Assembly: GCA_964016885.1 (NCBI GenBank)
Contig: OZ024742.1
Coordinates: forward strand, 241,242,001 to 241,306,000
Length of the DNA stretch: 64,000 nt
Reading direction: 5' to 3'
DNA from: Eledone cirrhosa
Taxonomy: Eukaryota
Numbering within the stretch: the stretch's first letter is position 1; every line of letters starts with the position of its first letter. The notes beneath the pieces were generated by a model. It did no database searches. It was not told where the DNA came from and saw nothing but the letters and a program-made list of their open reading frames with translations. Below, one piece after another: positions 4,975 to 41,300 of this stretch. The position numbers were made by a program, and so were the translations under genes.

Positions 4975-5112
4975 ATATATATAGCATTCACCGTATTTTT
5001 AACTAAAGGAATGTTAGCTTGATAACGGGGTTTAGAACCCTCAGATAAATGGAAAAAGATGAGTATTGACGTACATGTAACTAAATTCCTTTAGTTAAAA
5101 ATACGGTGAATG

Positions 5113-5120
<8 letters not shown>
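4975..5120. repeat. Short fold-back element (~38-bp inverted repeats) in (TA)n
   Basis: tatagcattcaccgtatttttaactaaaggaat ... attcctttagttaaaaatacggtgaatgctata. Confidence 0.75.
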
Positions 5121-5167
<47 letters not shown>

Positions 5168-6138: not shown

Positions 6139-6219
<81 letters not shown>

Positions 6220-6865
6220 TATATATATATATATAGATATATGTATATGTATATATATACACATAGACTAGAGAATGTATGTATATATGTGTGTGTCTAT
6301 ACGTGTGTATATATATATGTATGCATGTGTATATGTATGTAAGTATGAACAAGTTACTATGTGAATGTGAGTATATGTATTTTGTAGAGGGGTGCAAATA
6401 TGTTTGTGTGAGAATGCGTGGGTGAAAGGATACGTACACTGGAAAGAAAAAATTTAAGTCTGAATGTTAATTAAGTGCAAACACAAAACCAACCACGCGA
6501 ATCTTTACTATCTCTAATCCTTCTATAGATTTAGAAAAATAACCAATAATATATTCTATAAAAATGTCAAAACAACAGATGGGAATCTAATTACTCACTG
6601 CCACCAAAAATTCTCAGCGCTATCAAAAAAACCACTCCCTCAACTATTCTTCTAACAACTTCACCCCTCCCTCCTAATATTCTCTATAAAAACCAAACAG
6701 GTCCACAGTAATATTATTCTGATGAAATGACAGTAAATAATAACATTGAAATATTGATTGTCTGCATAACTAATACTTTGTAGATAGCAGCTGTTTTAGG
6801 TTACGTAACTGTTATAGAAACACGTGTCAATAAATTCCTTTCAACTAAACTGTATCCATTCAAAT

Positions 6866-6870
<5 letters not shown>
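5653..6870 (+). mobile_element. Penelope family A, copy 2 (endonuclease C-terminus + pLTR)
   Basis: Near-identical to 2594-3895; hammerhead at 6714-6833; (TA)n on both sides. Confidence 0.9.
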
Positions 6871-6921
<51 letters not shown>

Positions 6922-8497: not shown

Positions 8498-9326
8498 TAT
8501 TTTCCGTTGTGTTGTAATATAAATATTACACACAGTAGATTATCAGCTCACGTAGAGTTTGCTCGACGGTTCCAGTTGTAGTTCCAAAAGTAATCCGGAG
8601 AAAAATAGAAAGATTTGAATGGATACAGTTTAGTTGAAAGGAATTTATTGACACGTGTTTCTATAACAGTTACATAACCTAAAACAGCTGCTATCTACAA
8701 ACTTTTAGTTATGCAGACATTCAATATTTCAATGTTATTATTTACTGTCATTTCATCAGAATAATATTACTGAGGACCTATTTAGTTTTTATAGAGAATA
8801 TTAGGAGGGAGGGGTGAAGTTGTTAGAAGAATAGTTGAAGGAGTGGTTTTTCGATAGCAGTGAGAATTCTTGGTGGCAGTGAGTAATTAGATTCCCATCT
8901 GTTGTTTTGACATTTTTTATAGAATATATTATTGGTTATTTTTCTAAATCTATAGAAGGATTAGAGATAGTAAAGATATGCGTGGTTGGTTTTGTGTTTG
9001 CACTTAATTAACATTCAGACTTAAATTTTTCTTTCAAGTGTACGTATCCTTTCACCCACGCATTCACAAACAAATATATTTGCACACCTCTACAAAATAC
9101 ATATACTCACAATTCACATATTCATACTTACATATATATACACATGCATACACATATATATACACACATGTATTCATGTACATACATACGCGCTCATGTG
9201 TATACATTTTCATACTCAACTTATCTTTATATACACACGTATAGACACACACATATATACATACATACTCTAGTCCATGTGTACACACATACACATATAT
9301 ACACATCCATATACACATATATACAT

Positions 9327-9393
<67 letters not shown>

Positions 9394-10650
9394 CACTTTA
9401 ATACATGAATACACTTACATCTAACTATACACATCAAACATATATATATATATTTACTTATTTATATACATTTTCACATATATATACATACTTATGGACG
9501 TTTTTAGACACATTCATTATCGCATATTTGTACCTATTCTCATCAGCATATCTTTCCATTATTAGTGTGGTAATTTAAGGTTATTAATATATGTAGAGAA
9601 GAGATTGTTTTTATATTTTTCTAACTAGATTAAGGTTTATATAGTTGGGGGATGTCCCTCTTTTATGTAATATTCGGCTTGTAGTGGGAAAAAAGGGTTT
9701 TAGTTCTGTGACGGCAGAATAATGTTCGTTCAATTCTGTTATTCAGCAGTTTCTTCTTGTGTGTGATTATGTAATAAATCTCAAGATTACACAATTTGCA
9801 GAAATTTTGGCTCCTGGAAAAGCCTTGGGTTTTAGCTAATTTTTCCCATTTTAGGGTAAACTTTTGATCGCTATCCCTGAGCGTCCAAGCTTTTTCTGCT
9901 AAAGTTGTTACATTTCTTTGGCTCTGGTGTTTTATTGAGTAAGAATGCCTATACAATCGAGATTTAAACGATGTTGCCGTTGATCCCACGTAATACCACT
10001 CGTTGCCTCCGGATTTAATGGTACACTTATAAATAATATTTTTTTCCAGGCAGTTATTGCCGAGGGGGCAGTTGTCAGGATAGGTGCAGTTACAGTTGTG
10101 TACGTTGGGTTTTCTCTGGAGTAGTATTGCGGACGAACTTAGGTGTGGTTTATTTATGTTCTGTAGTTTATTGTTTACTGTTTTTTTTGTGTTCTTTGTA
10201 CTTAAGTTCTCAGTGTTTTCGTTTAACCTTCTAGTATTGATCTTTTTTATGTGTTGTTCAAGGTTTAACGCTGTAGAGTATGACAGTCTTATAGTGGTAG
10301 GGTTTAGGATTTTGTGGTATTTGTGTGATGTGGGAAAATGTCTTTTAATTATTTTAAAGAAGAGTACTGGTAAATTTGTACTAATGGAACTATTGTATTC
10401 GGGGTTATACCATAAGTACTCTTTGCATCGCTTTCTATTAGTTTTGTTTGTTGGTTTACTGGTGTGCATACTATGGTAGTAAGTGTGGTTTGGTGTTGTG
10501 TTATTATATCTACCTATGTGGTATTTATTTTGGGTGTTTTGATTGTTCCCATCTATGTACTCTATTTTGTTGAGGTAGCCTGCTTTACTAAGGGCGTTAT
10601 CGTAGTACTCGGCGTGTTCCTTAAATACTTGTATGTTAGAAGATAGACCC
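8494..10650 (-). mobile_element. Penelope family A, copy 3 (inverted arm), with ~110-bp 3' extension
   Basis: Reverse complement of copy 1; hammerhead on minus at 8645-8764. Confidence 0.9.
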
Positions 10651-10655
10651 GGCAA
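9663..10655 (-). CDS. Penelope RT-thumb/linker/GIY-YIG endonuclease ORF (5'-truncated, uninterrupted 330 aa)
   Basis: WYNP, LSYS, CNC..CPLGNNC, IIYKC...YYVGST, CKLC...CRH motifs. Confidence 0.8.
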   Translation of the reverse strand: MPGLSSNIQVFKEHAEYYDNALSKAGYLNKIEYIDGNNQNTQNKYHIGRYNNTTPNHTYYHSMHTSKPTNKTNRKRCKEYLWYNPEYNSSISTNLPVLFFKIIKRHFPTSHKYHKILNPTTIRLSYSTALNLEQHIKKINTRRLNENTENLSTKNTKKTVNNKLQNINKPHLSSSAILLQRKPNVHNCNCTYPDNCPLGNNCLEKNIIYKCTIKSGGNEWYYVGSTATSFKSRLYRHSYSIKHQSQRNVTTLAEKAWTLRDSDQKFTLKWEKLAKTQGFSRSQNFCKLCNLEIYYIITHKKKLLNNRIERTLFCRHRTKTLFSHYKPNIT

Positions 10656-11320
10656 TAACTGCCTGGAAAAAAATATTATTTATAAGTGTACCATTAAATC
10701 CGGAGGCAACGAGTGGTATTACGTGGGATCAACGGCAACATCGTTTAAATCTCGATTGTATAGGCATTCTTACTCAATAAAACACCAGAGCCAAAGAAAT
10801 GTAACAACTTTAGCAGAAAAAGCTTGGACGCTCAGGGATAGCGATCAAAAGTTTACCCTAAAATGGGAAAAATTAGCTAAAACCCAAAGCTTTTCCAGGA
10901 GCCAAAATTTCTGCAAATTGTGTAATCTTGAGATTTATTACATAATCACACACAAGAAGAAACTGCTGAATAACAGAATTGAACGAACATTATTCTGCCG
11001 TCACAGAACTAAAACCCTTTTTTCCCACTACAAGCCGAATATTACATAAAAGAGGGACATCCCCCAACTATATAAACCTTAATCTAGTTAGAAAAATATA
11101 AAAACAATCTCTTCTCAACATATATTAATAACCTTAAATTACCACACTAATAATGGAAAGATATGCTGATGAGAATAGGTACAAATATGCGATAATGAAT
11201 GTGTCTAAAAACGTCCATAAGTATGTATATATATGTGAAAATGTATATAAATAAGTAAATATATATATATATATGTTTGATGTGTATAGTTAGATGTAAG
11301 TGTATTCATGTATTAAAGTG

Positions 11321-11382
<62 letters not shown>

Positions 11383-12311
11383 TATGTATATATGTGTATA
11401 TGGATGTGTATGTATGTGTATGTGTGTACAAATGAACTAGAGTATGTATGTATATATGTGTGTGTCTATACGTGTGTATATAAAGATAAGTTGAGTATGA
11501 AAATGTATACACATGAGCGCGTATGTATGTACATGAAACATGTGTGTATATATATGTGTATGCATGTGTATATATATGTAAGTATGAATATGTGAATTGT
11601 GAGTATATGTATTTTGTAGAGGTGTGCAAATATATTTGTTTGTGAATGCGTGGGTGAAAGGATACGTACACTTGAAAGAAAAATTTAAGTCTGAATGTTA
11701 ATTAAGTGCAAACACAAAACCAACCACGCATATCTTTACTATCTCTAATCCTTCTATAGATTTAGAAAAATAACCAATAATATATTCTATAAAAAATGTC
11801 AAAACAACAGATGGGAATCTAATTACTCACTGCCACCAAGAATTCTCACTGCTATCGAAAAACCACTCCTTCAACTATTCTTCTAACAACTTCACCCCTC
11901 CCTCCTAATATTCTCTATAAAAACTAAATAGGTCCTCAGTAATATTATTCTGATGAAATGACAGTAAATAATTGTTTCTACTTTAGGCACAAGGCCAGCA
12001 ATCATCCAGTGCATTACTGGTACTTTATTTTATCGACCCCGTAAGGATGAAAGGCAAAGTAAACCTCGGCGGGATTTGAACTCAGATCGTAAAGGGACGT
12101 AACTATGCTGGAAAGCATGGCGTCAAACCCTCTACCGATACTGCCAATCCACCACCCTCTTGTGGATGAAATGACAGTAAATAATAACATTGAAATATTG
12201 AATGTCTGCATAACTAAAAGTTTGTAGATAGCAGCTGTTTTAGGTTATGTAACTGTTATAGAAACACGTGTCAATAAATTCCTTTCAACTAAACTGTATC
12301 CATTCAAATCT

Positions 12312-12316
<5 letters not shown>
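10649..12316 (+). mobile_element. Penelope family A, copy 4 (direct arm of the inversion), interrupted by a SINE
   Basis: Starts at GNNCLEKNIIYKC; mirror image of 8606-10062; ends in (TA)n. Confidence 0.9.
11973..12164 (-). mobile_element. Full-length SINE S1 with 21-bp TSD
   Basis: A box tggcagtatcgg and B box gagttcaaatcc on minus; TSD gatgaaatgacagtaaataat at 11952-11972 and 12165-12185. Confidence 0.9.
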
Positions 12317-12410
<94 letters not shown>

Positions 12411-13173: not shown

Positions 13174-16100
13174 AAAAAACTCGTTGATAACGTAAACTCC
13201 GTTCCACTTACTCTAGTAGGCTTTTATATTTATATGTGAGCTGATAGGGTACAGTCTAAGGATTTACAGAAACCCATGAAGCTAGATTTAACACCTTTCT
13301 AGTGGGTCCGGGTATGATTTTACATTCATTTAAATTATTGACGTATTGTTTTATTGATATTTTTTATCTGTTTGGCCCGAATCTTCCTTTATCGATTTTA
13401 AATCGTATGGTTGATTGTAGACTTGTTCTATATGTGACGGTATTTTAACGATAGTTATAGCTCTGATTCACCTGAATTATTGAGCCCTCTGCCGCTCATA
13501 TCGAATTTCGTTTATCGTGAACTCGTGCGCCGATTTTTCGATACTCGATCTTTCTAATATATTTAGCTCTGGACATAGCTATCCACCAGTTAATTTTATT
13601 GCTCATTTTTTGTCGATTCTATTGAGTGATGAATAGCTTTTGTTTTATTTTAACATGTCTATTGAGCACTCTAATTCGATATGTGTATTTCCACATTCAC
13701 TCGAATTGTTTTCGCGGATATAGGGGTCATCTCCCTTGTCTAATGCCATGTGCGTTTTTCACCGCTAGTTGACTCCTCTGCCGCCAGGAAAAAACTCGTT
13801 GATAACGTAAACTCCGTTCCACTTACTCTAGTAGGCTTTTATATTTATATGTGAGCTGATAGGGTACAGTCTAAGGATTTACAGAAACCCATGAAGCTAG
13901 ATTTAACACCTTTCTAGTGGGTCCGGGTATGATTTTACATTCATTTAAATTATTGACGTATTGTTTTATTGATATTTTTTATCTGTTTGGCCCGAATCTT
14001 CCTTTATCGATTTTAAATCGTATGGTTGATTGTAGACTTGTTCTATATGTGACGGTATTTTAACGATAGTTATAGCTCTGATTCACCTGAATTATTGAGC
14101 CCTCTGCCGCTCATATCGAATTTCGTTTATCGTGAACTCGTGCGCCGATTTTTCGATACTCGATCTTTCTAATATATTTAGCTCTGGACATAGCTATCCA
14201 CCAGTTAATTTTATTGCTCATTTTTTGTCGATTCTATTGAGTGATGAATAGCTTTTGTTTTATTTTAACATGTCTATTGAGCACTCTAATTCGATATGTG
14301 TATTTCCACATTCACTCGAATTGTTTTCGCGGATATAGGGGTCATCTCCCTTGTCTAATGCCATGTGCGTTTTTCACCGCTAGTTGACTCCTCTGCCGCC
14401 AGGAAAAAACTCGTTGATAACGTAAACTCCGTTCCACTTACTCTAGTAGGCTTTTATATTTATATGTGAGCTGATAGGGTACAGTCTAAGGATTTACAGA
14501 AACCCATGAAGCTAGATTTAACACCTTTCTAGTGGGTCCGGGTATGATTTTACATTCATTTAAATTATTGACGTATTGTTTTATTGATATTTTTTATCTG
14601 TTTGGCCCGAATCTTCCTTTATCGATTTTAAATCGTATGGTTGATTGTAGACTTGTTCTATATGTGACGGTATTTTAACGATAGTTATAGCTCTGATTCA
14701 CCTGAATTATTGAGCCCTCTGCCGCTCATATCGAATTTCGTTTATCGTGAACTCGTGCGCCGATTTTTCGATACTCGATCTTTCTAATATATTTAGCTCT
14801 GGACATAGCTATCCACCAGTTAATTTTATTGCTCATTTTTTGTCGATTCTATTGAGTGATGAATAGCTTTTGTTTTATTTTAACATGTCTATTGAGCACT
14901 CTAATTCGATATGTGTATTTCCACATTCACTCGAATTGTTTTCGCGGATATAGGGGTCATCTCCCTTGTCTAATGCCATGTGCGTTTTTCACCGCTAGTT
15001 GACTCCTCTGCCGCCAGGAAAAAACTCGTTGATAACGTAAACTCCGTTCCACTTACTCTAGTAGGCTTTTATATTTATATGTGAGCTGATAGGGTACAGT
15101 CTAAGGATTTACAGAAACCCATGAAGCTAGATTTAACACCTTTCTAGTGGGTCCGGGTATGATTTTACATTCATTTAAATTATTGACGTATTGTTTTATT
15201 GATATTTTTTATCTGTTTGGCCCGAATCTTCCTTTATCGATTTTAAATCGTATGGTTGATTGTAGACTTGTTCTATATGTGACGGTATTTTAACGATAGT
15301 TATAGCTCTGATTCACCTGAATTATTGAGCCCTCTGCCGTTCATATCGAATTTCGTTTATCGTGAACTCGTGCGCCGATTTTTCGATACTCGATCTTTCT
15401 AATATATTTAGCTCTGGACATAGCTATCCACCAGTTAATTTTATTGCTCATTTTTTGTCGATTCTATTGAGTGATGAATAGCTTTTGTTTTATTTTAACA
15501 TGTCTATTGAGCACTCTAATTCGATATGTGTATTTCCACATTCACTCGAATTGTTTTCGCGGATATAGGGGTCATCTCCCTTGTCTAATGCCATGTGCGT
15601 TTTTCACCGCTAGTTGACTCCTCTGCCGCCAGGAAAAAACTCGTTGATAACGTAAACTCCGTTCCACTTACTCTAGTAGGCTTTTATATTTATATGTGAG
15701 CTGATAGGGTACAGTCTAAGGATTTACAGAAACCCATGAAGCTAGATTTAACACCTTTCTAGTGGGTCCGGGTATGATTTTACATTCATTTAAATTATTG
15801 ACGTATTGTTTTATTGATATTTTTTATCTGTTTGGCCCGAATCTTCCTTTATCGATTTTAAATCGTATGGTTGATTGTAGACTTGTTCTATATGTGACGG
15901 TATTTTAACGATAGTTATAGCTCTGATTCACCTGAATTATTGAGCCCTCTGCCGCTCATATCGAATTTCGTTTATCGTGAACTCGTGCGCCGATTTTTCG
16001 ATACTCGATCTTTCTAATATATTTAGCTCTGGACATAGCTATCCACCAGTTAATTTTATTGCTCATTTTTTGTCGATTCTATTGAGTGATGAATAGCTTT

Positions 16101-18470
16101 TGTTTTATTTTAACATGTCTATTGAGCACTCTAATTCGATATGTGTATTTCCACATTCACTCGAATTGTTTTCGCGGATATAGGGGTCATCTCCCTTGTC
16201 TAATGCCATGTGCGTTTTTCACCGCTAGTTGACTCCTCTGCCGCCAGGAAAAAACTCGTTGATAACGTAAACTCCGTTCCACTTACTCTAGTAGGCTTTT
16301 ATATTTATATGTGAGCTGATAGGGTACAGTCTAAGGATTTACAGAAACCCATGAAGCTAGATTTAACACCTTTCTAGTGGGTCCGGGTATGATTTTACAT
16401 TCATTTAAATTATTGACGTATTGTTTTATTGATATTTTTTATCTGTTTGGCCCGAATCTTCCTTTATCGATTTTAAATCGTATGGTTGATTGTAGACTTG
16501 TTCTATATGTGACGGTATTTTAACGATAGTTATAGCTCTGATTCACCTGAATTATTGAGCCCTCTGCCGCTCATATCGAATTTCGTTTATCGTGAACTCG
16601 TGCGCCGATTTTTCGATACTCGATCTTTCTAATATATTTAGCTCTGGACATAGCTATCCACCAGTTAATTTTATTGCTCATTTTTTGTCGATTCTATTGA
16701 GTGATGAATAGCTTTTGTTTTATTTTAACATGTCTATTGAGCACTCTAATTCGATATGTGTATTTCCACATTCACTCGAATTGTTTTCGCGGATATAGGG
16801 GTCATCTCCCTTGTCTAATGCCATGTGCGTTTTTCACCGCTAGTTGACTCCTCTGCCGCCAGGAAAAAACTCGTTGATAACGTAAACTCCGTTCCACTTA
16901 CTCTAGTAGGCTTTTATATTTATATGTGAGCTGATAGGGTACAGTCTAAGGATTTACAGAAACCCATGAAGCTAGATTTAACACCTTTCTAGTGGGTCCG
17001 GGTATGATTTTACATTCATTTAAATTATTGACGTATTGTTTTATTGATATTTTTTATCTGTTTGGCCCGAATCTTCCTTTATCGATTTTAAATCGTATGG
17101 TTGATTGTAGACTTGTTCTATATGTGACGGTATTTTAACGATAGTTATAGCTCTGATTCACCTGAATTATTGAGCCCTCTGCCGCTCATATCGAATTTCG
17201 TTTATCGTGAACTCGTGCGCCGATTTTTCGATACTCGATCTTTCTAATATATTTAGCTCTGGACATAGCTATCCACCAGTTAATTTTATTGCTCATTTTT
17301 TGTCGATTCTATTGAGTGATGAATAGCTTTTGTTTTATTTTAACATGTCTATTGAGCACTCTAATTCGATATGTGTATTTCCACATTCACTCGAATTGTT
17401 TTCGCGGATATAGGGGTCATCTCCCTTGTCTAATGCCATGTGCGTTTTTCACCGCTAGTTGACTCCTCTGCCGCCAGGAAAAAACTCGTTGATAACGTAA
17501 ACTCCGTTCCACTTACTCTAGTAGGCTTTTATATTTATATGTGAGCTGATAGGGTACAGTCTAAGGATTTACAGAAACCCATGAAGCTAGATTTAACACC
17601 TTTCTAGTGGGTCCGGGTATGATTTTACATTCATTTAAATTATTGACGTATTGTTTTATTGATATTTTTTATCTGTTTGGCCCGAATCTTCCTTTATCGA
17701 TTTTAAATCGTATGGTTGATTGTAGACTTGTTCTATATGTGACGGTATTTTAACGATAGTTATAGCTCTGATTCACCTGAATTATTGAGCCCTCTGCCGC
17801 TCATATCGAATTTCGTTTATCGTGAACTCGTGCGCCGATTTTTCGATACTCGATCTTTCTAATATATTTAGCTCTGGACATAGCTATCCACCAGTTAATT
17901 TTATTGCTCATTTTTTGTCGATTCTATTGAGTGATGAATAGCTTTTGTTTTATTTTAACATGTCTATTGAGCACTCTAATTCGATATGTGTATTTCCACA
18001 TTCACTCGAATTGTTTTCGCGGATATAGGGGTCATCTCCCTTGTCTAATGCCATGTGCGTTTTTCACCGCTAGTTGACTCCTCTGCCGCCAGGAAAAAAC
18101 TCGTTGATAACGTAAACTCCGTTCCACTTACTCTAGTAGGCTTTTATATTTATATGTGAGCTGATAGGGTACAGTCTAAGGATTTACAGAAACCCATGAA
18201 GCTAGATTTAACACCTTTCTAGTGGGTCCGGGTATGATTTTACATTCATTTAAATTATTGACGTATTGTTTTATTGATATTTTTTATCTGTTTGGCCCGA
18301 ATCTTCCTTTATCGATTTTAAATCGTATGGTTGATTGTAGACTTGTTCTATATGTGACGGTATTTTAACGATAGTTATAGCTCTGATTCACCTGAATTAT
18401 TGAGCCCTCTGCCGCTCATATCGAATTTCGTTTATCGTGAACTCGTGCGCCGATTTTTCGATACTCGATC

Positions 18471-18482
<12 letters not shown>
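13174..18482 (+). repeat. 615-bp tandem array (~8.6 units), retrozyme-like
   Basis: Exact period of 615 (gttccactta at 13201, 13816, 14431...); only one substitution noticed (15340); no ORF of 60 aa or more; one hammerhead per unit; ends in (TA)n. Confidence 0.95.
13179..13313 (+). ncRNA. Large type I hammerhead ribozyme with U3-A8 core (repeated 9x at +615 intervals)
   Basis: actcg-TTGATAA-c-gtaaa(c)tcc...ggatttac-a-GAAA-ccca...ctaga/tctag...tggg-TC-cgggt. Predicted cleavage after GUC at 13308, 13923, 14538, 15153, 15768, 16383, 16998, 17613 and 18228. Confidence 0.8.
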
Positions 18483-18501
<19 letters not shown>

Positions 18502-19210
18502 GTCATTTTGGAAGTCTCAGCAATGCAGATGGGTAAATCTCCGGGTAACAGAATCAGGTTGTAATGAGAAAGAGATGTAAGAGGAAGCGTAGAAAGAGAC
18601 GTAGAGAGCGTAAAGGAACGTAGGAAAAGGGTTAAAAATAATTGTTTATACTTTTGGCACAAGGCCAGCAATTATTTCAGTGTATAACTTGTACTTTATT
18701 TTATCGACCCCCTAAGGATGAAAAGCAAAGTTAACCTCGGTGGGATTTGAACTCAGACCATAAAGGGCCTTAACTCTTTGTTGCAAAGCATGGCGTCCGA
18801 TCCTCTACCGATACTGCCAATCCACCGCCTTTGTAAAAAATAATAACACGAGATAGAGTTAGCTTGGAAGTGATTTAATAGTTCCTATATTTCGAATTTC
18901 GCATCAATCAACTGAGGGTTTTTCGAGTTGTACGCACACGGTAAACAGTGGAGGCCACGTGTTGTCCCTCTCCGATACAACTTTTCGCCTCGGAAAACCC
19001 CCAGTTGTTCGATGCGAAATCCGAAATATAGGGACTATTAAATCACTTCCAAGGTAACTCTATCTTGTGTTATTATTTTTTTACACTTTTCCTACGTTCC
19101 TTTACGCTCTCTAAATCTCTTTCTACGCTTCCCCTTACATCTCTCTCATTACCACCTGATTCTGTTACCCGGAGATTTACCCATCTGCATTGTTGAGGCT
19201 TCCAAATAAC
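18502..19210. repeat. Diverged inverted repeat (~230-bp arms); left arm interrupted by a SINE
   Basis: 18502-18642 plus 18836-18930 mirror 18990-19210; the right arm runs into the family B tail. Confidence 0.8.
18643..18833 (-). mobile_element. SINE S1
   Basis: Family sequence; flanked by aaaaataat direct repeats. Confidence 0.85.
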
Positions 19211-20829: not shown

Positions 20830-23800
20830 TAATGAAATTATTGTGTAAAGTGCCCAGGTGCACTACAACTCGTCAAAGGTGTATGTATAGTACATAGAAT
20901 AATACACAAATGTCAGGGAAGTGAATAGTGTATGAGTCATGGTATACATGTGTGTATGTGTATGGAGGGGGAACATTAGCTGTAGTGTTGGCGGATCTCG
21001 GGAAGCATGGAGGCCTTAAAGGATGCAGTTCTCGACAGCTAACAACTGATGCAGGTAGTTTGTTCCATGCTTCAGCAACTCTGAGCGTGAAAAAATGTTT
21101 CCGAAAGTCATGGGAACTGTGCTGTTTTCTGACTTTGTGGGCATGTCCACGTGTGTTAGACACATGGAAATCAAAAAGTTACTCAGGGTTGTTGTTGGCA
21201 AGATGGTTAACAATTTTGTGGGTATTTACCAAGTCAGTTGCCAGGCGTCGGGGCTTCAATGTATCCATGCCCAGAGAAGCAAGGCGCTCAGAATATGGTA
21301 GATGCCTGATGGAGGGTATTCGCTTGGTTGCACGTCTCTGAACAGTTTCCAGGCGGTCAATGTTCTGAGCAAGATAGGGGTTCCAGACTGGTGATGCAAA
21401 TTCTAAGTGTGGCCGCACCATAGCCATGTACAGCCTTAAATAGATATCTGGAGAGCGGCTGACAAAGGTCTTGCTGAGTGATGCTAAGACACCCTCGGCC
21501 CTCTTGACAATTTTAGAGACGTGCTTCGTCCAACGCAAATCGCTGCTGACCGTAATGCCCAGGTCACGTTCACAAGAAGACTTCTTGATATTAGTGCTGT
21601 GGAGGGAGTATGTGGCCGCTGGGTTTTTACTCCCAAAATGCATGGTGGTGCACTTGTCCACAGCCAGCTTGAGTTGCCAGTCTGAGATCCATTGTTGCAT
21701 AGTGTCCAGGTCAGACTGCAAGCAAGATCTATAGTGTTCAGGATCCGTCCTTTTTATCTCAAGGTACAGCTTGATGTCATCTGCGTACTTTAGTACCGTG
21801 GCATCTATGTCATTAATATATGCCACAAACAAAAGGGGGCCAAGAACAGATCCCTGTGGTACACCAGATGACATCTCATATGGTGAGGAATGCTGTCCCA
21901 GAACCGTGATTACCTCTCTTCGAATGAGAATGAAGGACTTCAATCAGTTAAAAAGATCATCTTTCACACCCATTGCAGAGAGTTTTGCCATAAGCCTTTT
22001 GTGTGGCACAGAATTGAAGGCTTTCGCAAAGTCAAGGTAAACAACATCCACCCATGAGCCGCCATCAGTGATCCGGGTGATGTCCTCAAGAAACTCTATA
22101 AGTTGATCACAGCAGCTGGAGTTGGGATACATCCAAATTGCGAGGGCTGGATAAGACTGTGAGAGCTCCAGAAGTTCCAAAGTGTTTCTCTGACACAGGA
22201 TTCCATCAGTTTGTCGATGCAACTAGTAAGACTGACTGGACGATAGTTCACAGGTGATGTGCGGTCAGCCTTTTTGAACAGAGGAATGACACTGGCAGTT
22301 TTCCACTGTTCTGGAGTAGCACCGTTGTTCAGTCAGAATTGGAAGAAGCGTGATAACTGGTGCAGAAGGAAGTACCCACCACGTTTAAGAAGCAGGTACG
22401 TAGCACCATCAAGACCAGGAGAGGCATGGTTGCGTTTATTTTTTAGGTGACGTCGCAGCATTGCAGGTGTAAATTCCATGGTTGTAATAGAGTCCGGTGT
22501 CATAGGTGGTGGAGATGGTACACTCTGGTCTTCAATAGTGAAAATGCCTGCATAGCATTCAGCAATGAGCTCTGCGCATTCCTTAGGGTCGTCAGTAACC
22601 TGGCTTGTGTGGGGATTGCGAAGAGGACCAACTGGAGAGTGGGGCCGCTGCTTTGAGTGAACATACTTCCAGAAGACCTTACTGTCAGAGTTGGTTGCTA
22701 TGCGCTGCTCAAATTGAAGCACTGCCTTTTTTGTCCTGTTTGAGGTGGTTGGACGATCTATTTCGCCTCTTCCTATTAATGTCTGATTTGTGAAGTTTGT
22801 ACTCACGTTCAGCATTGCACCGTTCTTTTCTGGCAAGACGGACTGCTGCAGTCTCCCAAATTGCACTTTTGGGATGTTTTTTCCGCTTACGTGGCACCGA
22901 TGCTGCACATGCTGCCCATATTGAGCTCAGGATGTTCTGGAGTACAGTGTTGACATCTCCAGAGTCGTAGAACTCAAGCCAGTTTGACCGTTGCAACTCG
23001 GTGCAGTAACAGTTCCAGTCTGCTTTATTCCAGTCAAAGTGAGCAGTTTGGAGATGGTTGTGGTTCTTGTTACTGCCCATGAGGGATAGATTGGCAATGA
23101 TCATAGCATGATCAGAGTCACCTAAAGGTTCCTCAGCAGTAACACTAATTACCGTTTCAGGAGTAGTGGTGAAGAGTAGGTCCAAAGTGTTGTCACTTCT
23201 CGTTGGGGAGGTGACCACCTGGGACCAACTCGAGTCTAGCACTAGCTCAGGGAAGTCATTTGCACTAGGCGGCCAACGAAAGGTTTCCCAGTCAATCTCA
23301 GGGTGATTGAAGTCACCTGCAATGAAAACATAAGTGGCTGTCTTCCTGGCAGCAGCTCTGAGGATATCACAAAGTTGAGTGTCCTGATGGTAATTTGGGG
23401 GACGGTAAACGACTCCAAGTAGCAGTGTTGACATGGTCATACGTATATCGCAGAAAAAACTTCCTGCTGTGATTGGTTCAAATCAGCACAAGGAATTGCC
23501 GACAGATTTGACCGAACGTAGACCATTACACTACCACCAGGACGATTAATGAAGTCTTTACGAAACAGGTTGTAGCCAGTCATGCTGAAAACCCCATCAC
23601 AGAGTAAGGGATGTGCCCAAGTTTCCGTGACTGTAATGAAGTCAGGGTTGATACTTTTGACGTAGGAGTCAAAATGATGAATCTTATTGCATAGACTATG
23701 TGCATTCAAGGACAACAATTTGTACCTTGATTCCAGTCTATGATTATGTGCAGGGAATGGCAGGTTTTTCTAATTTAGTTTCCCAGAGTTTTTTCAGTTT

Positions 23801-25879: not shown

Positions 25880-26081
25880 AAAAATAGGAAAAAAGTTTAA
25901 CCCCGACGGCAGAGCTCAAGCCGTTTCGACGCCTATTTCTGTACTAAATTAGAATTCTAATTTAGTCCAGAAATAGCCGTCGAAACGGCTTCAGCTCTGC
26001 CGTCGGGGTTAAACTTTTTCATATTACCCATTATACCACCCTAAGTATTGAGTACTCTGGTGCGTTATGGTCCATCTAGCT

Positions 26082-26087
<6 letters not shown>
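25878..26087 (+). mobile_element. Fold-back family C element between (TA)n tracts
   Basis: ~65-bp-arm palindrome centred on tagaattcta (~25955), plus the family tail. Confidence 0.75.
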
Positions 26088-26136
<49 letters not shown>

Positions 26137-26141
<5 letters not shown>

Positions 26142-26806
26142 TGCGTTTCGCTTTGTTTTTGACCACTGCCGAAATTCAATCTCGCTGAAATTATATTTGT
26201 ATTAATCTCCCGGGCCTAACAATTAACCAGTTAATTCTATTAGATAATACTATTGACTGGTTGATTGCTTAAGTTTATTTTAAAAACAACCCGGTCGAGA
26301 GCTTAATTCGATTTGTGCAGTTTTTACAATTCTTGCATTAATTTTACACATTCTGAATTCATCTTCCAAAACCGGGTTAACTCCTTCGCAAGGTAATACA
26401 CGTGGGGTAATCACTCCAACAATACAACTGCTAGGAACCCGCTCGCTGGCTGAGAACAAAATACCTGTTGACGAAGTGGCAGCCTTGTTCGATCATTATA
26501 CCAAAAGCTTAATATGGAAGCAGGCAGTATAATTGATTTAGGTGTCGGGCAAACTTTTCACTGGATTATACCATAAATCCCAGGGGGTCCAGGTAAATTC
26601 TTTCGTTTGACTTGTTTAGTTCGCTTCGTTTTTTTTTGCTTCTGTGGCTGATAGCTTCATGACCGCCGTTTTCAGTTTGTTTGGCCTCTATAATCTATGG
26701 TTATTGCTCTGGTCTTCTTTTAGTCCATTGAGCGCTTGCCGCATATCTCGAAAATTGCGTTTCGCTTTGTTTTTGACCACTGCCGAAATTCGCTGAAATT
26801 ATATTT
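26137..26806 (+). mobile_element. ~614-bp retrozyme-like element (1.1 units), diverged relative of the 615-bp array
   Basis: Terminal direct repeat aaaattgcgtttcgctttg... at 26137 and 26751; colinear motifs shared with the array unit; (TA)n on both sides. Confidence 0.8.
26462..26595 (+). ncRNA. Degenerate large type I hammerhead homologous to 13179-13313
   Basis: tacctg-TTGACGA-long helix II (gatcattatac/gtataattgatt)-gCAAA-ctttt...ggggg-TC-caggta. Helix I is a perfect 6 bp; G12 appears mutated. Confidence 0.6.
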
Positions 26807-26846
26807 ATATATATATATACATATATATAACCGAGGTTAACTTTAC

Positions 26847-26930
<84 letters not shown>

Positions 26931-27829: not shown

Positions 27830-30300
27830 ATCATATCTATAACTGATTACTATAAAAATTTGTTGGGAAAATCGAGTATAATTCTCTTGGGACGCAGAAA
27901 ATTCCCACTTGTCACACAGTTTCCAGTCGATTTCTTAGGCCACATTATTATGTTTCCCTTTCGTATAATCAATCATTTTGAGCAAGTTTTTAACATTCTG
28001 ATACAATGTGTGCCACTGTTTCAACTGCACTGCCATACAATCAACACAGAAGAGATACATCTTCTCTATATACTGTTGCAATTGTTATGCTCCCTGTTTC
28101 CTTTTTAACTACCCCTTGCCCATGTTGTGTCTTGCCCGTGTAGTGTCTTGCACGTGTAGTGTCTTGCCTGTGTAGTGTATTGCCTGTGTAGTGTCTTGCC
28201 TGTGTAGTGTCTTGCCCGTGTAGTGTCTTGCCCGTGTAGTGTCTTGCCCGTGTAGTGTGTTGCCTGTGTAGTGTCTTGCCCGTGTAGTGTGTTGCCCGTG
28301 TATTGTGTTGCCCGTGTAGTGTCTTGCCAGTGTAGTGTCTTGCCCGTGTAGTGTCTTGCCCGTGTAGTCTCTTGCCCGCATAGTGTCTTGCCCGTGTAGT
28401 GTCTTGCCCGTGTAGTGTCTTGCCTGTGTAGTGTCTTTTCCGTGTAGTGTGTTGCCCGTGTAGTGTCTTGCCTGTGTAGTGTCTTGCCCGTGTAGTGTCT
28501 TGCCTGTGTAGTGTCTTGCCCGTGTAGTGTCTTGCCCGTGTAGTGTCTTGCCCGTGTAGTGTCTTGCCTGTGTAGTGTGTTGCCTGTGTAGTGTGTTGCC
28601 TGTGTAGTGTCTTGCCCGTGTAGTGTGTTGCCCGTGTAGTGTGTTGCCTGTGTAGTGTCTTGCCCGTGTAGTGTGGTGCCCGTGTAGTGTGTTGCCCGTG
28701 TAGTGTGTTGCCCGTGTAGTGTGTTGCCTGTGTAGTGTGTTGCCTGTGTAGTGTGTTGCCCGTGTAGTGTGTTGCCCGTGTAGTGTTTTGCCCGTGTAGT
28801 GTCTTTCCCGTGTAGTGTCTTGCCTGTGTAGTGTCTTGCTTGTGTAGTGTCTTGCCTGTGTAGTGTCTTTTCCGTGTAGTGTCTTGGCCATGCAGTGTCT
28901 TTTCCGCGTAGTGTCTTGCCCATGTAGCGTCTTACCCATGTAGTGTCTTGCCCGTGTAGTGTCTTGCCCTCATATGCAGTTTCATGTTCATTCTCTACCT
29001 TTTCTTTACTTTTGTTAAAACAGCTCTATACACTGCCCTCTCTGGACGCGCGTAAATACTGTTGTAGCCCTCTTCTATTTTCGATTCTAACACAATCCTA
29101 TATCCCAATCAAACCTTGACCTCGATTTGCTCCTTTCATACATAATTGGTCTACATCTGCCGTGGCAGCCCCATATCTAATGATAGACACACTGCTCTTG
29201 AATTGATAGCAGAGATAATATTTCCACCGTTGAGTTTGATTTTAATATTGTCCTCGTACATATTCTTGACTTCCTTGATGTCGTCGTAAATATTCTTTGC
29301 TTGCCTGATCCTTCATCCTTTCGTGTTTTATTCCATCTGCTTCCAAAATTCCAAGATATTTATATCCTCTTCCTTCTTCAATGCAGTTCATCATTTTACC
29401 ATCTGGCAACACAATTCCTTCTCTCCGGACAACTATCTCCCTCTTCATAACCAGCACAGCACATTTTGACAAACCAAATTCAATCTTGATATCATATGAA
29501 AATATCTTAACGGCATTTTTCAAGCTGTTTATTTGATCTTCACTTTTCACAAACAATTTAAGACCGTCCATGAAGCGAAGGTGATTGGCACTCTCTCCGC
29601 CTTCTTTAGTTCATAAAATATCTTCATCTTTCTCAACATCAGTGTCAGTGGAATCATCACTACTACAAACAAGAATGGTGACAAACTGTCTCCTTGCACG
29701 TCTTATCATCACATTTCCTAACGTTTCATTGCCAGTGACTAGTTTAGTATTGCACAATTTCATACTCTTCTTCATGAGCTGATTTTCCAATCCAACTGTG
29801 AGGCACCATATCATATGTCTTGTGATAATCTATCCATGCGACTCCCAAGATGTTAATCTGTTCTTACAATTCTTCACTATCACTTTGTCGAACAGTAATT
29901 AATCCTTTGTGCATCTACTTCTTCTGCGTCATTTCTGCTCCCATTGAAACAAGTGTTTCTCCTCTAAATGTTTGTACAGTTCTTCAGCTAATACACTTGT
30001 TGATAGTTTTCATAACAGAAGTAGACAAAAGATCAGTCTAAAATTAGACACCATATTCCCCTTCTCTATTTCTTTCACACAGAGTAATATTCTCCCAGTT
30101 ATCATCTATTTTGACACTCTATTTTCATGGAAACAACCATCCAGTTTATTTGCTATTCTACTGTGTATTGATGTCAAGTTTTAATCTAGTATCAGTGAGC
30201 ATCATCTGGTCTTGAGCTTTTCCAGTTAGGCATTCTGGGGAACATTCCAAAAATCAATTTGAATTTGTACATTTTCTTGCCTCTCTATATCATTGAATTC
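27830..30300 (-). pseudogene. Decayed R4/Dong-type non-LTR retrotransposon (RT + CCHC region)
   Basis: HLRFMDGLKLF...IEFGLSKC...YKYLGILEAD; KLNGGNIISAINSRAVSIIRYGA; ETVAHIVSEC*KLAQ...HNNVA*EIDWKLC; many stops. Confidence 0.8.
28113..28969. repeat. 16-bp minisatellite (tagtgtcttgcccgtg)n, ~53 units
   Basis: Directly visible; interrupts the R4-like element. Confidence 0.95.
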
Positions 30301-32504: not shown

Positions 32505-35500
32505 CTACAGGATGGTATACAGAGAAGGCCCATTTACACGAGCCATTCTCGCCACTATCACCCACCTTTCATAAAACTGCCTGTGGCCAAGCACCTCTCT
32601 CTCCATTCTTATCCTTCTTCCGAAGTGATATCGGAAGAAGTAGACCAGACTATGGCCAGAGAGGAAGTTGCCTGACCTCAGACCTTTCAATCGTGTCCAC
32701 CAAACAACCTCTTTCAACATGGCTATTACGCACAGAAAAACCGCCTTTGCTTCCTTTGTGAAGAGGGGAGGCGGTTTGATTGTCATCACGGACTCGGCGG
32801 TCAATTTAATCGGCGCCACCCGCGACAGCAGTTGTTCGGCGTAGCCCCACAGATCAGCCACGCCCGGACATTGCACCAATGCGTGCGCTACGGTTTCTTC
32901 GTGACGCACGCATCTAGGGCAAATCTTTTTTGAGGGATCCCTGCCCGGGCGCCCGTGTCTGTAGAGCCTCTCTCGAACGGGTAGAGCCCCTCGGTAGCAC
33001 TGCCAGGCCAGTGACTTCTGGAAGTTGTCCATTGGTCCTGGGCCGAAAGTCCTACCGAACAGGCTGGCCAGTTCGTCTTCTTCCATGTCCGGCGACTCTC
33101 CAAGGGTGTCATCGCCCCTGCTAGCCACCAGCCCTCTATAGAATGATGAGGTGGATTCTCCACCGATGGCCTGGCCCGCTTGCCAGAGAGCCCTGAGCGC
33201 CTGAGCACACTCAGTGTGCCAGTCTCCCAGTTTTCCGGATCTTTGCTTGACCCAGGACTGTAGCTCGGTGAGTGAGACGAGTCTCGGAAAGGCTCGTTTC
33301 ACGAACGGAGCCCACACCGGTTGACCAGTGAGGAATACCTGTAGGTGCCGTAGCCTTAATGCGTGCCTACGCATCATCAACCACGGCATCCCCAGCCCTC
33401 CTTTCGAAGGTTGTTGGCAGCAGATGGATCTTCTCACCATAGGAGGACGCTTCTTCCAAAGAAATTGGAAGAGCATGCGTTCCATGGTGGTGAGTGTTTC
33501 CTTAGGGCAAGGCACGACAGTCAGGCGGTAGTAAGTGACGGACGCTATGTAAATGTTCGCCACCTCCGCCCGGCCTTTTAGGGACAGCTTACACTTGGCC
33601 CATTTCTGGGTTAGTGCAAACACCTTGTTCGTAACCTCGTTCCAGTTCTTTTCCACCTGGAGGTCCGGTCCAAACCAGACCCCAAGCAACTTTACCGGGC
33701 CCTGCGTCCAGTGTCCGACGACACCGTCAGGAGGCATCGGTTTGCCTCTCCACGTTTCGAGTTGCAGCCCGATGGATTTTTCCCGGTTCAGTTTCGCTCC
33801 TGACAACCTTTCGTACTCCTCCAGTAAGGTACCGATCGCCTCGATCTCCGAGTCGGTTGATACCATTACTGTTACGTCATCGGCGTAGGCCGACACCGCT
33901 TTGCTCAATCCTGGTTCCAGGGGGATACCCTGCAACAACTCCAACTTCCTCAGTAAAGGCTCGAGAGTCAATACGTACAGAAGGGAGGAGAGAGGGCACC
34001 CCTGTCGAATGGATCGTGTGATTTCGAACGGCTTCGAAAGGTAGCCGTTCACCTTGATCCTAGAACAGATGTGGTTGCTATGTAGGGCAGTGATCCAGCC
34101 TCTGAAAACAGGACCGAACCCAGCCGCCGCTAGCACCGCATACAGGTAACCATGGTCGACCCTATCGAAGGCCTTAGACTGATCCAAGTTGATCAGGGCC
34201 CCACCGAAGCCAGGTTTGTTGCCAACCCTCTCTATGATGTATCGCATGAGGTGGAGGTTATCGTGAATGGACCTGGATGGGATAGCACATGTCTGCGCAT
34301 CTCCCACCAGGCCACCCACGACAAGCGCCAACCTCTTTGCTAACACCTTGGCCAAAATCTTTAACTCTGTGTTTAGCAGGGTTATGGGCCGAAAATTATT
34401 TATACTATCCCCCTTGTTCTCGTCCTTCCTCACCAGCGTGACTACGCCCTTGGCTACAGAACAAGGAATTCTCCCGTTCTGCTGCCAATTGCAGTAGACC
34501 GCTTCGAGGAGTTCGGAGAAGAAGACCGGCATTGCTAAATAAAGTTCGTAAGGTATACCATCGAGACCTGGGGATTTGCGTCTGCTGCATTGGCTCAACG
34601 CCTCTCCGATCTCATCAGCCGAGATTGGTCCCTCGCAGGACTCTGCCTCTTTGTTCGAGAGACGCGGCAGGCCGTCGAGGTATGGACCGAAATCCACGCC
34701 TCGGCCCGGACCCTCGCCTCCCCCGAACAATCGGGCAAAGTGCTTTTGAAAGGCCTCGCACATCTGCTTAGGCTCCCGGATCACTCGTCCATCTTCGTCT
34801 TGCAACGACCGGATGGTGGATCGATTTCCACTCTTAGCTTCTGTCACGCGGGCCCATCCAACGGCTTTGGCCCCCTCATTACCTAGAGCACGTATTTTAC
34901 TTCGAAAGACGCAGCCTTCATGCTTTGCATCGAAAAACTGGTTCAAGGCCGTCCTCGATGCCAGCACTCTGGCCACATCTTCGCTCTTGATTGCCTCTTC
35001 TAATTTACCTGTTAATTCTTTCTCGTTTCTATTCCTATCGGCAGCTAACATCTTGCTATAACTTATTGATTCTGTTCTAATCTCTCTTTTGAGAGATGCC
35101 CACCATCGGTTGTTGACGATTGCACCCGTCAACCTCTCCTTAACTAATCTGCTAATCCGGTTTCTGTAAGTCTCTTTTGCCGGTAAGGACAAATTAAGTT
35201 TCCAGTAACCGGGACCCTGTCTATGTGTTTTCTCGAGATTGACCACGCAGGTCACTAATTTGTGATCCGTGTAGCCAACCGTGCGCATTTCTGGACAGCT
35301 TAATATGTCCCTATCCTTACTTCTAACTAAGAATCTATCTAAGTACGATCTAGATTGACCACTGTGGTTTCTCCAAGTCCAGGTAGGCACAGTTGGAAAA
35401 TCTAGTCGATATCTATCGACCAAGTTAAAACGGTCGAGTAACCCCTTGAGGCTGTTACACCCCCCTCTATTAGGACATGCTCCTGCATAGTCCCAACGTG

Positions 35501-35941
35501 CATCCAGGATGTCATTCCAATCCCCCGCTAGAAGCAGGGAACGCGACGTTCCCAGAAAAGTCTCCAAACGCTGGAAGAAGTCGGGCCGTTCAGCTCCGAA
35601 AGGGAAGTAGACGGCGACCAGTCTCAAGGCCGCACTTTCACTACTTCCAACGTCTAGCACCAACAAACGACCCTCCGGGTCCGAGTGCACAACCTGTACG
35701 GCAAGACCCAGGTGTTTTTGCAGCAGTACGACAACCCCACCCCACCTGCAGGTTGACAGAGAGATGCATGCACCTCAAAGTCATCGAAGGTGGGGGCCAG
35801 CTGCCGCATGACGCTGATTCGAGTCTCACAGATAACCATTACATTTATACTACATGACCTGAGGTCATTTAGAAGCTTTGCTTGCTTCCAAGTTGAGCCC
35901 AGGCCACGTGCATTCAAACATCCTACTCTTAACACATCCAT
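32505..35941 (-). CDS. Tx1 ORF2: APE endonuclease-reverse transcriptase-CCHC, one frameshift near 35700-35750
   Basis: CLNARGL, ICET, GDWN, YLDRF, TDH, YWKLN, SPGLDG, FRPITLLN, RQGCPLS, AYADD, CPRC...ETVAHALVQC. Confidence 0.9.
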
Positions 35942-38319: not shown

Positions 38320-41300
38320 AGATATTTGCCACCAGGGCATCAAAAGTGGACTAGTACAAAGGGGGGAGTTTACATGCAAAGGCGTCCTCAATATGGAGGA
38401 GGCAATAACAAAATATAAAAGTATAAAAATAAAATAAAATATAACAAAATAAATTTTATAACAAAATCCTCAATAGGGAGGAGGCGCCTTGGGGGGGGGG
38501 GGGGGTCGCACACACCCCCGAAAAAAAGTGTGCAACCCTTCTCCTCAGGAGCACAGAGAGGGGGTGCTCCCTTGGTCTTTCATCTTCCTCACCTATAGTC
38601 TGATCTAGAGTGAAGGCCCATTCACACGGGCCATTCTCGCCACTTTCACCCATCTTTCATAGAAACGGCTGGGGTGCAGCACCTCTCTCTCCATCCTGAT
38701 CCTTCTTCCGAAATGATATCGGAAGAAACGGACCAGTTGTTGGCCAGAGAGAAAGGTGTCTGATCTCAGTCCTTTCAGACGCGTCCACCATACAACTTCT
38801 TTCGCCATGGCTATTACGCACAGAAACACCGCCTCTCCTTCGTTTTTGAAGAGGGGAGGCGGCTTGATCGTTACAATAGACTACTCGGTGGTCAACCTGC
38901 TGCGTACCAGCCCTCTATAGAATGTCGAGGTGGAGTCTCCACTGATAACCGGGTCCGCCTGCCAGAGGGCCGTGAGCGCCTGGGCACACTCAGTGTGCCA
39001 GGCGCCCAGTTTTCTCGGTCTTTGCTTGACCCAGGATTGCAGCTCGGTAAGTGAGACGAGTCTGGGAAAGGTTCGTCAAACAAACGGGGCCCACACCGGT
39101 TGACCGGTGAGGAATACGTGGAGGTGCCGTAGCCTTAATGCGTGTTTATGCATCATTAGCCACGGCATCCCCAGCCCTCCTTTCGAAGGGTGTTGACAGC
39201 AGATGGATCTCCTCACCAAAGGAGCCCGCTTCTTCCAAAGGAATTGGAAGAGTCCGCGCTCCATCTTGGCGAGGGTTTCCCTTGGGTAAGGCACGACGGT
39301 CAGGCGGTAGTAGATGACGGACGCTATATAGGTGTTCGCCACCTCCGCCCGACCTTTCAGGGATAGTTTGAAACTGGCCCACTTCTGGGTCAGTTCAAAC
39401 ACCCTGTTCGTAACCTCACCCCAGTTCTTCTCCACCTGGAGGTCTGGTCCGAACCAGACCCCGAGCAACTTCAACGGGCCCTCCATCCAGCGTCCGACGA
39501 CGCCATCGGAGGGCATCGGTTTGCCCCTACACGTGCCGAGTTGCAAACCGATCGACTTGTCCCGGTTCAGCTTAGCCCCTGTGAACCTTTCGTACTCCTC
39601 CAGTAAGGTGCCGATCGCCCCGATTTCGGAGGCCGTCGACACCATTACTGCCACGTGATCGGCGTAGGCCGACACCGCTTTCCGCAATCCAGGTTCCAAA
39701 GGGATGCCCTGCAACAAGTCCAACTTCCGCAGTAGTGGCTCGAGAGTCAATACATACAGAAGGGAGGAGAGAGGGCACTCTTGTCGGATGGACCACGCGA
39801 TTTCGAACGGCTCCGAGAGGTAGTCGTTCACCTTGACCCTAGAGCAGATGCGGCTGCTGTGCATGGCATTGATCCAGCCCCTGAAAACGGGTCCGAAGCC
39901 TGCCGCCGCTAGCACCGCATACAGGTAACCATGGTCGACTCTATCGAACGCCTTAGATTGATCCAAGTTGATCAGGGCCCCACCAAAGCCGGGTTCGTTC
40001 CCAACCCTCTCTATGATGTATCGCATGAGGTGGAGGTTGTTGTGGATGGACCTGGACGGGATAGCACATGTCTGCGCATCTCCCACCAGGTTGCCCACGA
40101 CAAGCGCCAACCTCTTTGCTAACACCTTGGCCAAAATCTGTAACTCTGTATTTAGCAGAGTTATGGGCCTGAAGTTACTTATTTCGTCCCCCTTGTTCTC
40201 GTCCTTCCTCACTAGCGTGACTACGCCCTTGGTCACAGAACAGGGAATTTTCCCGTTCTGTCACCAGTTGTAGTAGACCGCCTCGAGGAGATCGGGGAAC
40301 AAGTCCGGCATAGCTAGATATAGTTCGTATGGAAGACCATCGAGACCCGGGGATTTGCGTTTGCCGTATTGTCTCAGCACGTCCTCTATCTCAGCGGCTG
40401 AAATCGGCTCCTCGCAGGACTTCGCCTCCTCGTCCGAAAGACGCGGCAGGCCGTCGAGGTATGGACCGAAGTCCACTTCCCCCAACCGGCTCCCTGCCCC
40501 TTCCGAACAATCGGGCAAAGTACCTTTGAAAGGCCTCACACATCTGCTTAGGTTCAAGGATCGCCCGTCCATCCTGGTCTCGCAAAGACCGGATGGTGGA
40601 TTTAATTCCATTCTTGGCTTCTGTCACGCGGGCCCAGCTAACAGCTTTGATCCCCTCGTTTCCTAGAGCACGTATTTTACTTCGGACAAGGCAGCCTTCG
40701 TGCTTCGCGTCGAAACACTGGCTCAAAGCCGTTCTCAACGCTTCTAATTTCCTCTTCTACTATATCTATCAGCTCCCTTTCCTTCCTATTCCTATCCGCA
40801 GCTAAAATCTTACTAAATTCTATCGAGACTAATCTAATCTCTCTCTTTAGAGATACCCACCACCTGCTGTTGACGATCGCTCCAGTCAACCGCTCCTTAA
40901 CTAACGTACTAATCCGGTCCCTATAAGCTTTACTTGCCGGTAAGGACAAGTTCAGCTTCCAGTAACCGGAACCCTGTCTATGCGTTCTATCAATGTTGAC
41001 CATGAAAGTCACTAACTTGTGGTCTGATTAGGCAACCATGAGCATTTCTGGACAACTTAAGAAGTCCCTATCCTTATTTCTAACTAAGAACCTATCTACG
41101 TACGATCTAGATTGACCGACGAGATTTGTCCAAGTCCAGATTGGCACAGTCGGAAAATCTAGTCGAAATCTATCGGCCAGGTCAAATCGGCCGAGTAACC
41201 CCTTGAGGCTGTTACACCCTTCTCTATCGGGACATGCCCCTGCATAGTCCCAACGTGCATCCAGGATACCATTCCAGTCCCCCACTAAATGCAGGGAACG

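Follow-up and report, generated by a model that had tools for sequence, protein, structure and literature searches.

A family of long-armed U3 hammerhead retrozymes in Eledone cirrhosa with features of non-autonomous Penelope-like elements, and the clustering of its 5′ ends next to the predicted ribozyme cut

Non-LTR retrozymes of metazoans are described as non-coding, low-GC, tandem or partially tandem elements with one type I hammerhead ribozyme per unit, dispersed as monomers and multimers, for which a Penelope-like element (PLE) partner and a circular template have been proposed (PMC7229834; bioRxiv 10.64898/2026.07.22.740005). Recently, they have been argued to be non-autonomous PLEs, and in vitro no cutting was seen for eight of the nine Xenopus retrozymes examined (bioRxiv 10.64898/2026.07.22.740005). 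PLEs carry hammerheads of their own: a U3-A8 core is known in the Cercyon elements of Schistosoma, an extra base occurs 5′ of helix II, helix III is long in fungal and protist PLEs, and circle-based copying of more than one unit has been proposed; the hammerheads of metazoan PLEs are minimal and thought to be dimeric (PMC4209133). Circular templates for retrozyme arrays are a proposal as well (PMC4209133, PMC7229834). The retrozyme class is already in print, as are the U3-A8 core and the circle model. Copies of Neptune/Nematis-type EN+ PLEs, and of MRC1 and similar non-autonomous PLEs, include 5′-truncated forms, partial tandems and neighbouring inverted copies; they sit in microsatellites with no target duplication visible and carry a hammerhead close to the 3′ end (PMC8557442). 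Poseidon of Anolis (PAc) starts reverse transcription internally, at adjacent fixed sites, and has an AT-rich target (PMC11167929).

Here we analyze an insertion at 26137–26806 (+) of a 64,000-nt stretch of the Eledone cirrhosa genome (contig OZ024742.1, positions 241,242,001 to 241,306,000; the window). By its testable features, the family of this insertion (family B) is a non-LTR retrozyme, i.e. a non-autonomous PLE. It combines retrozyme traits (a non-coding, tandem or partially tandem unit, one type I hammerhead per unit, dispersed multicopy distribution) with those of non-autonomous PLEs (a fixed 3′ end, 5′ truncation, partial tandems, 5′ inversions and a microsatellite target), and the features just listed for metazoan retrozymes, for PLE hammerheads (other than the minimal metazoan ones), for the Neptune/Nematis- and MRC1-type elements and for PAc recur here. 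Several properties set it apart. Units measure 606–616 nt, compared with 150–450 nt (PMC7229834) or up to 972 nt (bioRxiv 10.64898/2026.07.22.740005) in described retrozymes. The core has U3 with A8 or G8, whereas metazoan non-LTR retrozymes have C3-G8; helices II and III are both long, at about 75 and 35 nt, respectively, in contrast to the short arms of those retrozymes and the minimal hammerheads of metazoan PLEs; and the target is strictly (TA)n, unlike that of metazoan non-LTR retrozymes. Unlike the PLE hammerheads of PMC4209133, these carry an additional A before G12, with A at position 8 in some families and G in others. The available portions of PMC4209133 did not present a family-wide U3-G8 core, nor did those of PMC7229834 and bioRxiv 10.64898/2026.07.22.740005 present genomic 5′ ends mapped to the cut site. 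A plant LTR retrozyme (type III hammerhead in LTRs, PBS, PPT and 4-bp target duplication) was ruled out by the type I topology and by a redundancy that varies in length.

The insertion is 670 bp long and comprises 1.09 units, as a 5′-truncated partial tandem with a period of 614. A (TA)26 target tract (26085–26136) abuts its 5′ junction, and its 3′ flank (26807–26930) consists of a short TA run, 29 bp of other sequence and (TA)40 at 26850–26930. The terminal redundancy is formed by a 62-nt 5′ copy of the unit end (26137–26198), resembling a pseudo-LTR overlap, and a 56-nt 3′ copy (26751–26806) that ends at the fixed 3′ junction, the predicted internal start of reverse transcription; the two copies are 90% identical, with a 6-nt indel. 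A preliminary description of this DNA had recognized a 614-bp unit with terminal redundancy between TA tracts, and both the unit and its coordinates were correct; it gave no name to the element class. Relative to the majority sequence of its 30 closest loci, the copy differs by 4.5%; other B copies lie at 3.5–8.8%. No stop-to-stop frame of at least 150 aa is present in the insertion or in the array described below.

A family A array at 13174–18484 (+) consists of 8.6 units of 615 bp, with a U3-A8 core and a fixed 3′ end before (TA)12. It has the same polarity as the insertion, contains one hammerhead motif at each of nine positions and shows a single difference among its eight complete units. 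In a global alignment with the insertion, 392 of 607 aligned columns are identical; the score of 278.5 exceeds those of 300 dinucleotide shuffles (169.4 ± 12.5, highest 215; z 8.7), and the reverse complement scores 127.5. The relationship proposed in the preliminary description is thus upheld, and its account of helix I, of the TTGACGA core, of CAAA and of the homologous 3′ junction was accurate. Its six colinear motifs fared less uniformly. Five are found in both sequences with their order kept, and the sixth matches the array, while its counterpart in the insertion lacks one base. The agreement of gtt.actcct is partly luck: two of its letters, at 26380 and 26385, changed in this copy alone, and in the family alignment the stretch is matched to another part of A. 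The proposed common fold holds for the hammerhead and for one long hairpin (26219–26268, with 17-nt arms at 26219–26235 and 26252–26268), which has changed in base sequence but is kept in families A–D. For the whole unit, the circular structure predicted from this copy does not outperform shuffled sequences (z −0.45 and −0.92); z values across families are mixed, from −0.6 to −7.1 on the + strand (12 shuffles each).

Searches covered a genome of 3.0 Gb and returned overlapping candidate counts for the different families, which are not copy numbers. With the insertion as query, 3876 candidates were found, and the 40 scored are 84–91% identical; the array yielded 673, and the 38 scored are about 99% identical and form arrays of one to eleven units. 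Families C (3587 candidates) and D (4733 candidates) were discovered adjoining fetched copies. Likeness amounts to 52–74% between families and 87–94% among B subfamilies, and copies are spread across many chromosomes as monomers and multimers. Judged by this between-family likeness, the divergence of B and the near-identity of A, the superfamily is old, with B representing a past wave and A a recent one. The earlier suggestion of an old, structurally conserved family is supported. Additional diverged subfamilies of this superfamily occur at L047:2900–3615, L168:320–940 and L303:4260–4750, and core position 8 alternates even inside family A. Family A words are also present in six sequence runs from four studies with four organism labels; for four of these runs, contigs aligned to the array cover it at mostly 90–100% likeness.

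The hammerhead has type I topology, with three helices around the core and helix I open. Helix I is formed by 26462–26467 and 26590–26595. Between its strands lie the core U3-U4-G5-A6-C7-G8-A9 with one unpaired A (26468–26475), the long helix II arm (26476–26549), the GAAA box, which reads CAAA in this copy (26550–26553), and the long helix III with the GUC triplet (26553–26589), so that the predicted cut falls between 26589 and 26590. Across 15 copies drawn from all families, 94.3% of cells are paired in the three helices, compared to 87.5 ± 1.2 after shuffling (0/500) and 14–44% in slid controls, and seven of 14 pairs have changed on both sides, although these copies were selected by a core-requiring pattern and are related. 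RNAalifold recovers the three helices and the junction unaided. The preliminary claim that the helices were kept with different sequence is thus borne out by covariation.

As the covariation rows had been selected by a core pattern, invariance was checked separately on eight family majorities or representatives chosen by homology. U3, U4, G5, A6, A9, G12-A15 and GUC are constant in all eight; all four bases occur at position 7, and position 8 is split evenly between G and A, giving a U3-A8 pair in four and a U3-G8 wobble in the other four, including B. Among 29 other B copies, U3 is found in 29, G8 in 26 and G12 in 28. U3-G8 is therefore the family B state and not decay, as had been thought, whereas CAAA is indeed a private lesion, together with the damaged base of helix II (26548–26550 in all). 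This copy is likely to be inactive following the loss of G12 (hammerhead numbering), a catalytic residue. A mismatch at the base of helix II is also seen in ordinary hammerheads of this genome.

In the isolated region, the hammerhead is the minimum-energy fold for five of eight family sequences and lies within 1.2 kcal of it for two more; for the insertion, it is 4.6 kcal off the minimum. Helix I is absent from full-length folds (P ≤ 0.02 in 10 of 10 circles) and reaches P > 0.9 in only two of 10 nascent-RNA folds. A downstream arm (26609–26614, with one private change in this copy) is predicted to sequester the 3′ strand of helix I, which it complements in 85 of 88 distinct copies. These models suggest that the arm could be a switch that turns the ribozyme off after cutting, although the match may also reflect one change on the tree (B+C versus A+D). 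An Rfam scan of the window gave 68 matches at E ≤ 1, of which none was a hammerhead and none lay within the insertion, and no minus-strand hammerhead was found in the insertion or the array. A further U3-G8 hammerhead-like pattern with a long AT-rich arm, at 20876 (−), may be due to chance.

The 3′ end was examined in 30 B loci fetched from 42 matches to an internal 34-nt pattern. Twenty-eight end at the canonical junction, one reaches it after an internal deletion and one ends 150 nt early. Tabulated across copies, the junction is thus fixed in 29 of 30 loci, within (TA)n, and not random. In B its position shifts by a few bases between two or three variants, all running into TA, and exact junction-plus-TA patterns match 697 times for A, 211 for B and 103 for C, compared to none for reversed controls. 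The 3′ end corresponds to an internal site of the circularly permuted unit, and poly(A) or a tail repeat is absent. The 5′ ends are ragged, some copies have an inverted 5′ piece and the redundancy varies in length between copies. Analyzed in this way, the pattern points to target-primed reverse transcription from an internal start on + strand RNA, as in PLEs (PMC8557442, PMC11167929). The junctions are compatible with microhomology priming at (TA)n. The start site of PAc, by contrast, is non-homologous to its target and no RNA ends were found at its hammerhead (PMC11167929), whereas the junctions here fall on TA-like letters and the 5′ ends pile up at the cut.

This pile was measured in samples chosen by the 3′ junction alone, namely the first 90 of 211 B matches, 30 of 103 C and 70 of 697 A; 13 A loci ran past the fetched stretch and were dropped, leaving 57 resolved, and the B sample retains one duplicated pair (L219/L220) and one inverted pair (L249/L250) that is a single locus. 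The 5′ ends lie 0–29 nt 3′ of the predicted cut, just downstream of which the 3′ strand of helix I begins, in 37 of 90 B, nine of 30 C and 12 of 57 A copies, compared with four of 90 B and two of 57 A in the mirror window. Per base at risk, the first-pass stop rate is 16.9 times the background in B (p 2e-20), 6.5 times in C (p 1e-4) and 20.2 times in A (p 6e-7). Three copies (L014, L127 and L154) begin exactly at the cut; most piled ends are 4–27 nt off it, those of B beginning at +4 and reaching +27. The pile copies are not split elements, since none of the 35 first-pass B pile copies carries a hammerhead further upstream. Three or more TA are found at 20 of these 35 junctions. The simplest reading of these ends is run-off from ribozyme-cut RNA, with a few bases lost on joining TA, and the pile thus likely records self-cutting of the RNA in the living animal. 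The pile at the predicted cut and its dependence on the lap, described next, are new here. In the literature available to us, no report was found of either, or of a family-wide U3-G8 core, or of C3U/G8A data or PLE truncation at a hammerhead; supplementary motif alignments or repeat databases may hold these families.

The families differ in what happens on later laps. In A, the pile is gone (ratios 1.2 and 1.3; two ends in the window next to the cut and 40 outside), where a stop rate of 16% per pass predicts about 14 ends over about 90 later passes. This pattern fits cut linear monomers together with circles, since linear multimers cut partially and independently would show the pile again at each pass. 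In B, a hand count (omitting an inverted piece of L013) covers 12 best-match copies extending as far as the second cut, 10 of which end no more than 30 nt from it; in the unbiased set, two of about four do so (ratio 9.3, p 0.02). The insertion itself passed one site and ended 160 nt before reaching the next cut, and so fits either template; since the pile recurs in B, as it would with linear, partly cut multimers, no circle is required for this copy. The preliminary proposal of more than one round on a circular template consequently fits A, where uniform arrays accompany the missing later-lap pile, and is not needed for the insertion. We consider it likely that the long arrays of A derive from monomer circles, while linear, partly cut multimers suffice for B.

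A reading that dispenses with circles altogether, in which copies longer than one unit arise by linear read-through of genomic multimers or by in-place growth of arrays through unequal exchange, is the most durable of the alternatives, but we regard it as doubtful. The second-cut stops of B suit it, and so does the presence of an identical unit in several A arrays, which could stem from a uniform source array; local amplification has been proposed for retrozymes (bioRxiv 10.64898/2026.07.22.740005). In one A array of 11 or more units (L310), two unit types lie in blocks and the pattern repeats after six, which hints at block duplication or a multimeric template. Against it stands the shortage of later-pass ends in A. 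Moreover, across 26 A arrays the median number of unit differences is 0 within and 8 between arrays, no unit-private variant is common to different arrays, and the longest arrays (over 11 units) belong to the youngest family, whereas older families mostly remain under 1.4 units.

A second alternative accepts the element class but attributes the pile to stalling of the reverse transcriptase at folded RNA, either helix I or the sequestering hairpin, with a U3 hammerhead, above all the U3-G8 form of B, that hardly cuts. The B ends at +4 to +27 do fall inside the hairpin predicted between +0–5 and +18–24. With the purified anole PLE, hammerhead cutting was dispensable, uncut RNA was the main template and the priming site was non-homologous, and single changes at position 3 or 8 killed the activity of its ribozyme (PMC11167929). 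However, the pile keeps within 0–25 nt of the cut in each of A, B and C, although the downstream arm is at about +66–70, +18–24 and +43–48, respectively. The longer hairpin at 26219–26268 makes no such pile, as the next-best 30-nt window holds six B ends compared to 36. Stalling also leaves unexplained why catalytic bases are invariant across such diverged families and why three ends lie exactly at the cut. We therefore judge stalling to be improbable, and continue with run-off from cut RNA.

The enzymes are likely to be supplied by a partner. A GIY-YIG search gave 10,597 candidates, and all 150 that were scored lay above the cut-off. Open reading frames of the RT-linker-GIY-YIG type have 3′ regions that end in (TA)n and contain sense minimal hammerheads, with U3-A8 in two families. 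The target and polarity of these Neptune-type EN+ PLEs (a clade name given from domain order and the Cys linker, traits that Nematis shares) match those of the retrozyme families. One young Neptune-type family (L101, L356–L375; many copies with an open frame of 775 aa, L101 with 938 aa) is 98–100% identical over 77 of 77 scored copies and forms partial tandems in seven of 20. Its tandem junction has 13 nt in common with that of family A, eight of them TA-like target letters, and from these sequences it is the best candidate partner for A. Its own 5′ ends (seven of 20 with an upstream copy, three of them censored; offsets of +31, −15, −115 and −431 from its cut) are too few as a sample. MRC1-type elements usually resemble the 3′ end of their partner (PMC8557442), in contrast to the families here, which have no ORF and, for A, no likeness beyond these 13 nt. 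No DNA similarity was detected between families A–D and 60 GIY-YIG or PLE loci drawn from over 10,000 candidates (40 GIY-YIG loci and 20 others) or with six PLE 3′ regions (best local z 2.9), and no partner for B was found among the 60. A PLE protein match was neither recurrent next to the 5′ ends of fetched copies nor present in the window.

Mobilization as a SINE-like element by an APE-type LINE, or a satellite nature, with an incidental hammerhead, is very improbable. LINE RT fragments do occur in the window, and truncated or inverted 5′ ends are known from target-primed elements in general. However, poly(A) or a tail repeat is lacking, the unit is circularly permuted with its 3′ end at a site internal to it, the PLEs of this genome likewise have partial tandems, (TA)n targets and sense hammerheads, and copies are dispersed over many chromosomes.

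The window holds several other repeats. LINE-type RT and APE endonuclease fragments (one in a frame of 1089 aa) and an LTR-retrotransposon fragment with RNase H and integrase occupy 32505–35774, 39076–40260, 21179–23482 (−) and 51488–53214 (+). A different repeat, nested and inverted, has a canonical CUGAUGA hammerhead-like motif at 6713–6835 (+) and about 8645–8765 (−); its copies lie within 1816–3925, 5653–6920 and 8605–12364. Some 35 nt separate the motif from a fixed end in (TA)n, and the element also adjoins two PLE loci (L103 and L104). Palindromic short repeats between TA tracts (3894–4426, 4975–5122, 18835–19081, 25880–26020 and 57293–57500) may in some cases be inverted PLE-derived fragments, because similar ones in L107 and L152 hold canonical hammerhead cores. 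Two minisatellites, at 28115–28969 (16 bp, 53 copies) and 59025–61906 (24 bp, 120 copies), have strong strand skew. Outside the window, tandem units of 459 bp that carry a canonical CUGAAGA hammerhead (L102:6700 and 7159) probably represent a further retrozyme family.

Taken together, we consider it probable that the insertion is a 5′-truncated copy of 1.09 units with a fixed 3′ end in (TA)n, reverse-transcribed by the RT and GIY-YIG endonuclease of a Neptune-type PLE from a self-cutting RNA with a type I hammerhead. In the proposed cycle, the + strand of a multimeric copy would be transcribed, and the hammerhead, whose folding is indicated by covariation, would cut after GUC in part of the molecules, as the 5′ ends suggest; the predicted downstream arm would then switch it off. 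The partner enzyme would nick (TA)n, and cDNA synthesis would begin at the fixed internal UA-rich site 220–256 nt 3′ of the cut. Run-off at the end of cut RNA would yield the many copies of 190–256 bp, and where the site is uncut or re-ligated, the enzyme would read on and produce partial tandems such as the one described here. Finally, the 5′ end would be joined to the target, often at TA, as the junctions show in part.

A review passage asks whether hammerheads merely parasitise PLEs. We put at even odds the broader view that this genome is a fossil record of the retrozyme cycle, in which copies of cut linear RNA stop at the cut, copies of ligated circles pass that point unhindered for up to 11 or more laps, and a hammerhead whose 3-8 pair alternates between U-A and U-G cuts sufficiently in vivo to set the 5′ end of half of B. 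If so, hammerhead cutting would affect the form of PLE-driven insertions in vivo, contrary to the single biochemical study, and screens based on C3 would miss whole high-copy families; the long-armed U3 hammerhead escapes Rfam, even though its families have 103–697 exact junction matches each. The contrast would be internal to one genome, with the young family A behaving as circles and the older B as partly cut linear RNA. Copy ends would then offer a cheap, genome-only read-out of the role of the hammerhead and of the form of the template, applicable to any retrozyme or PLE family.
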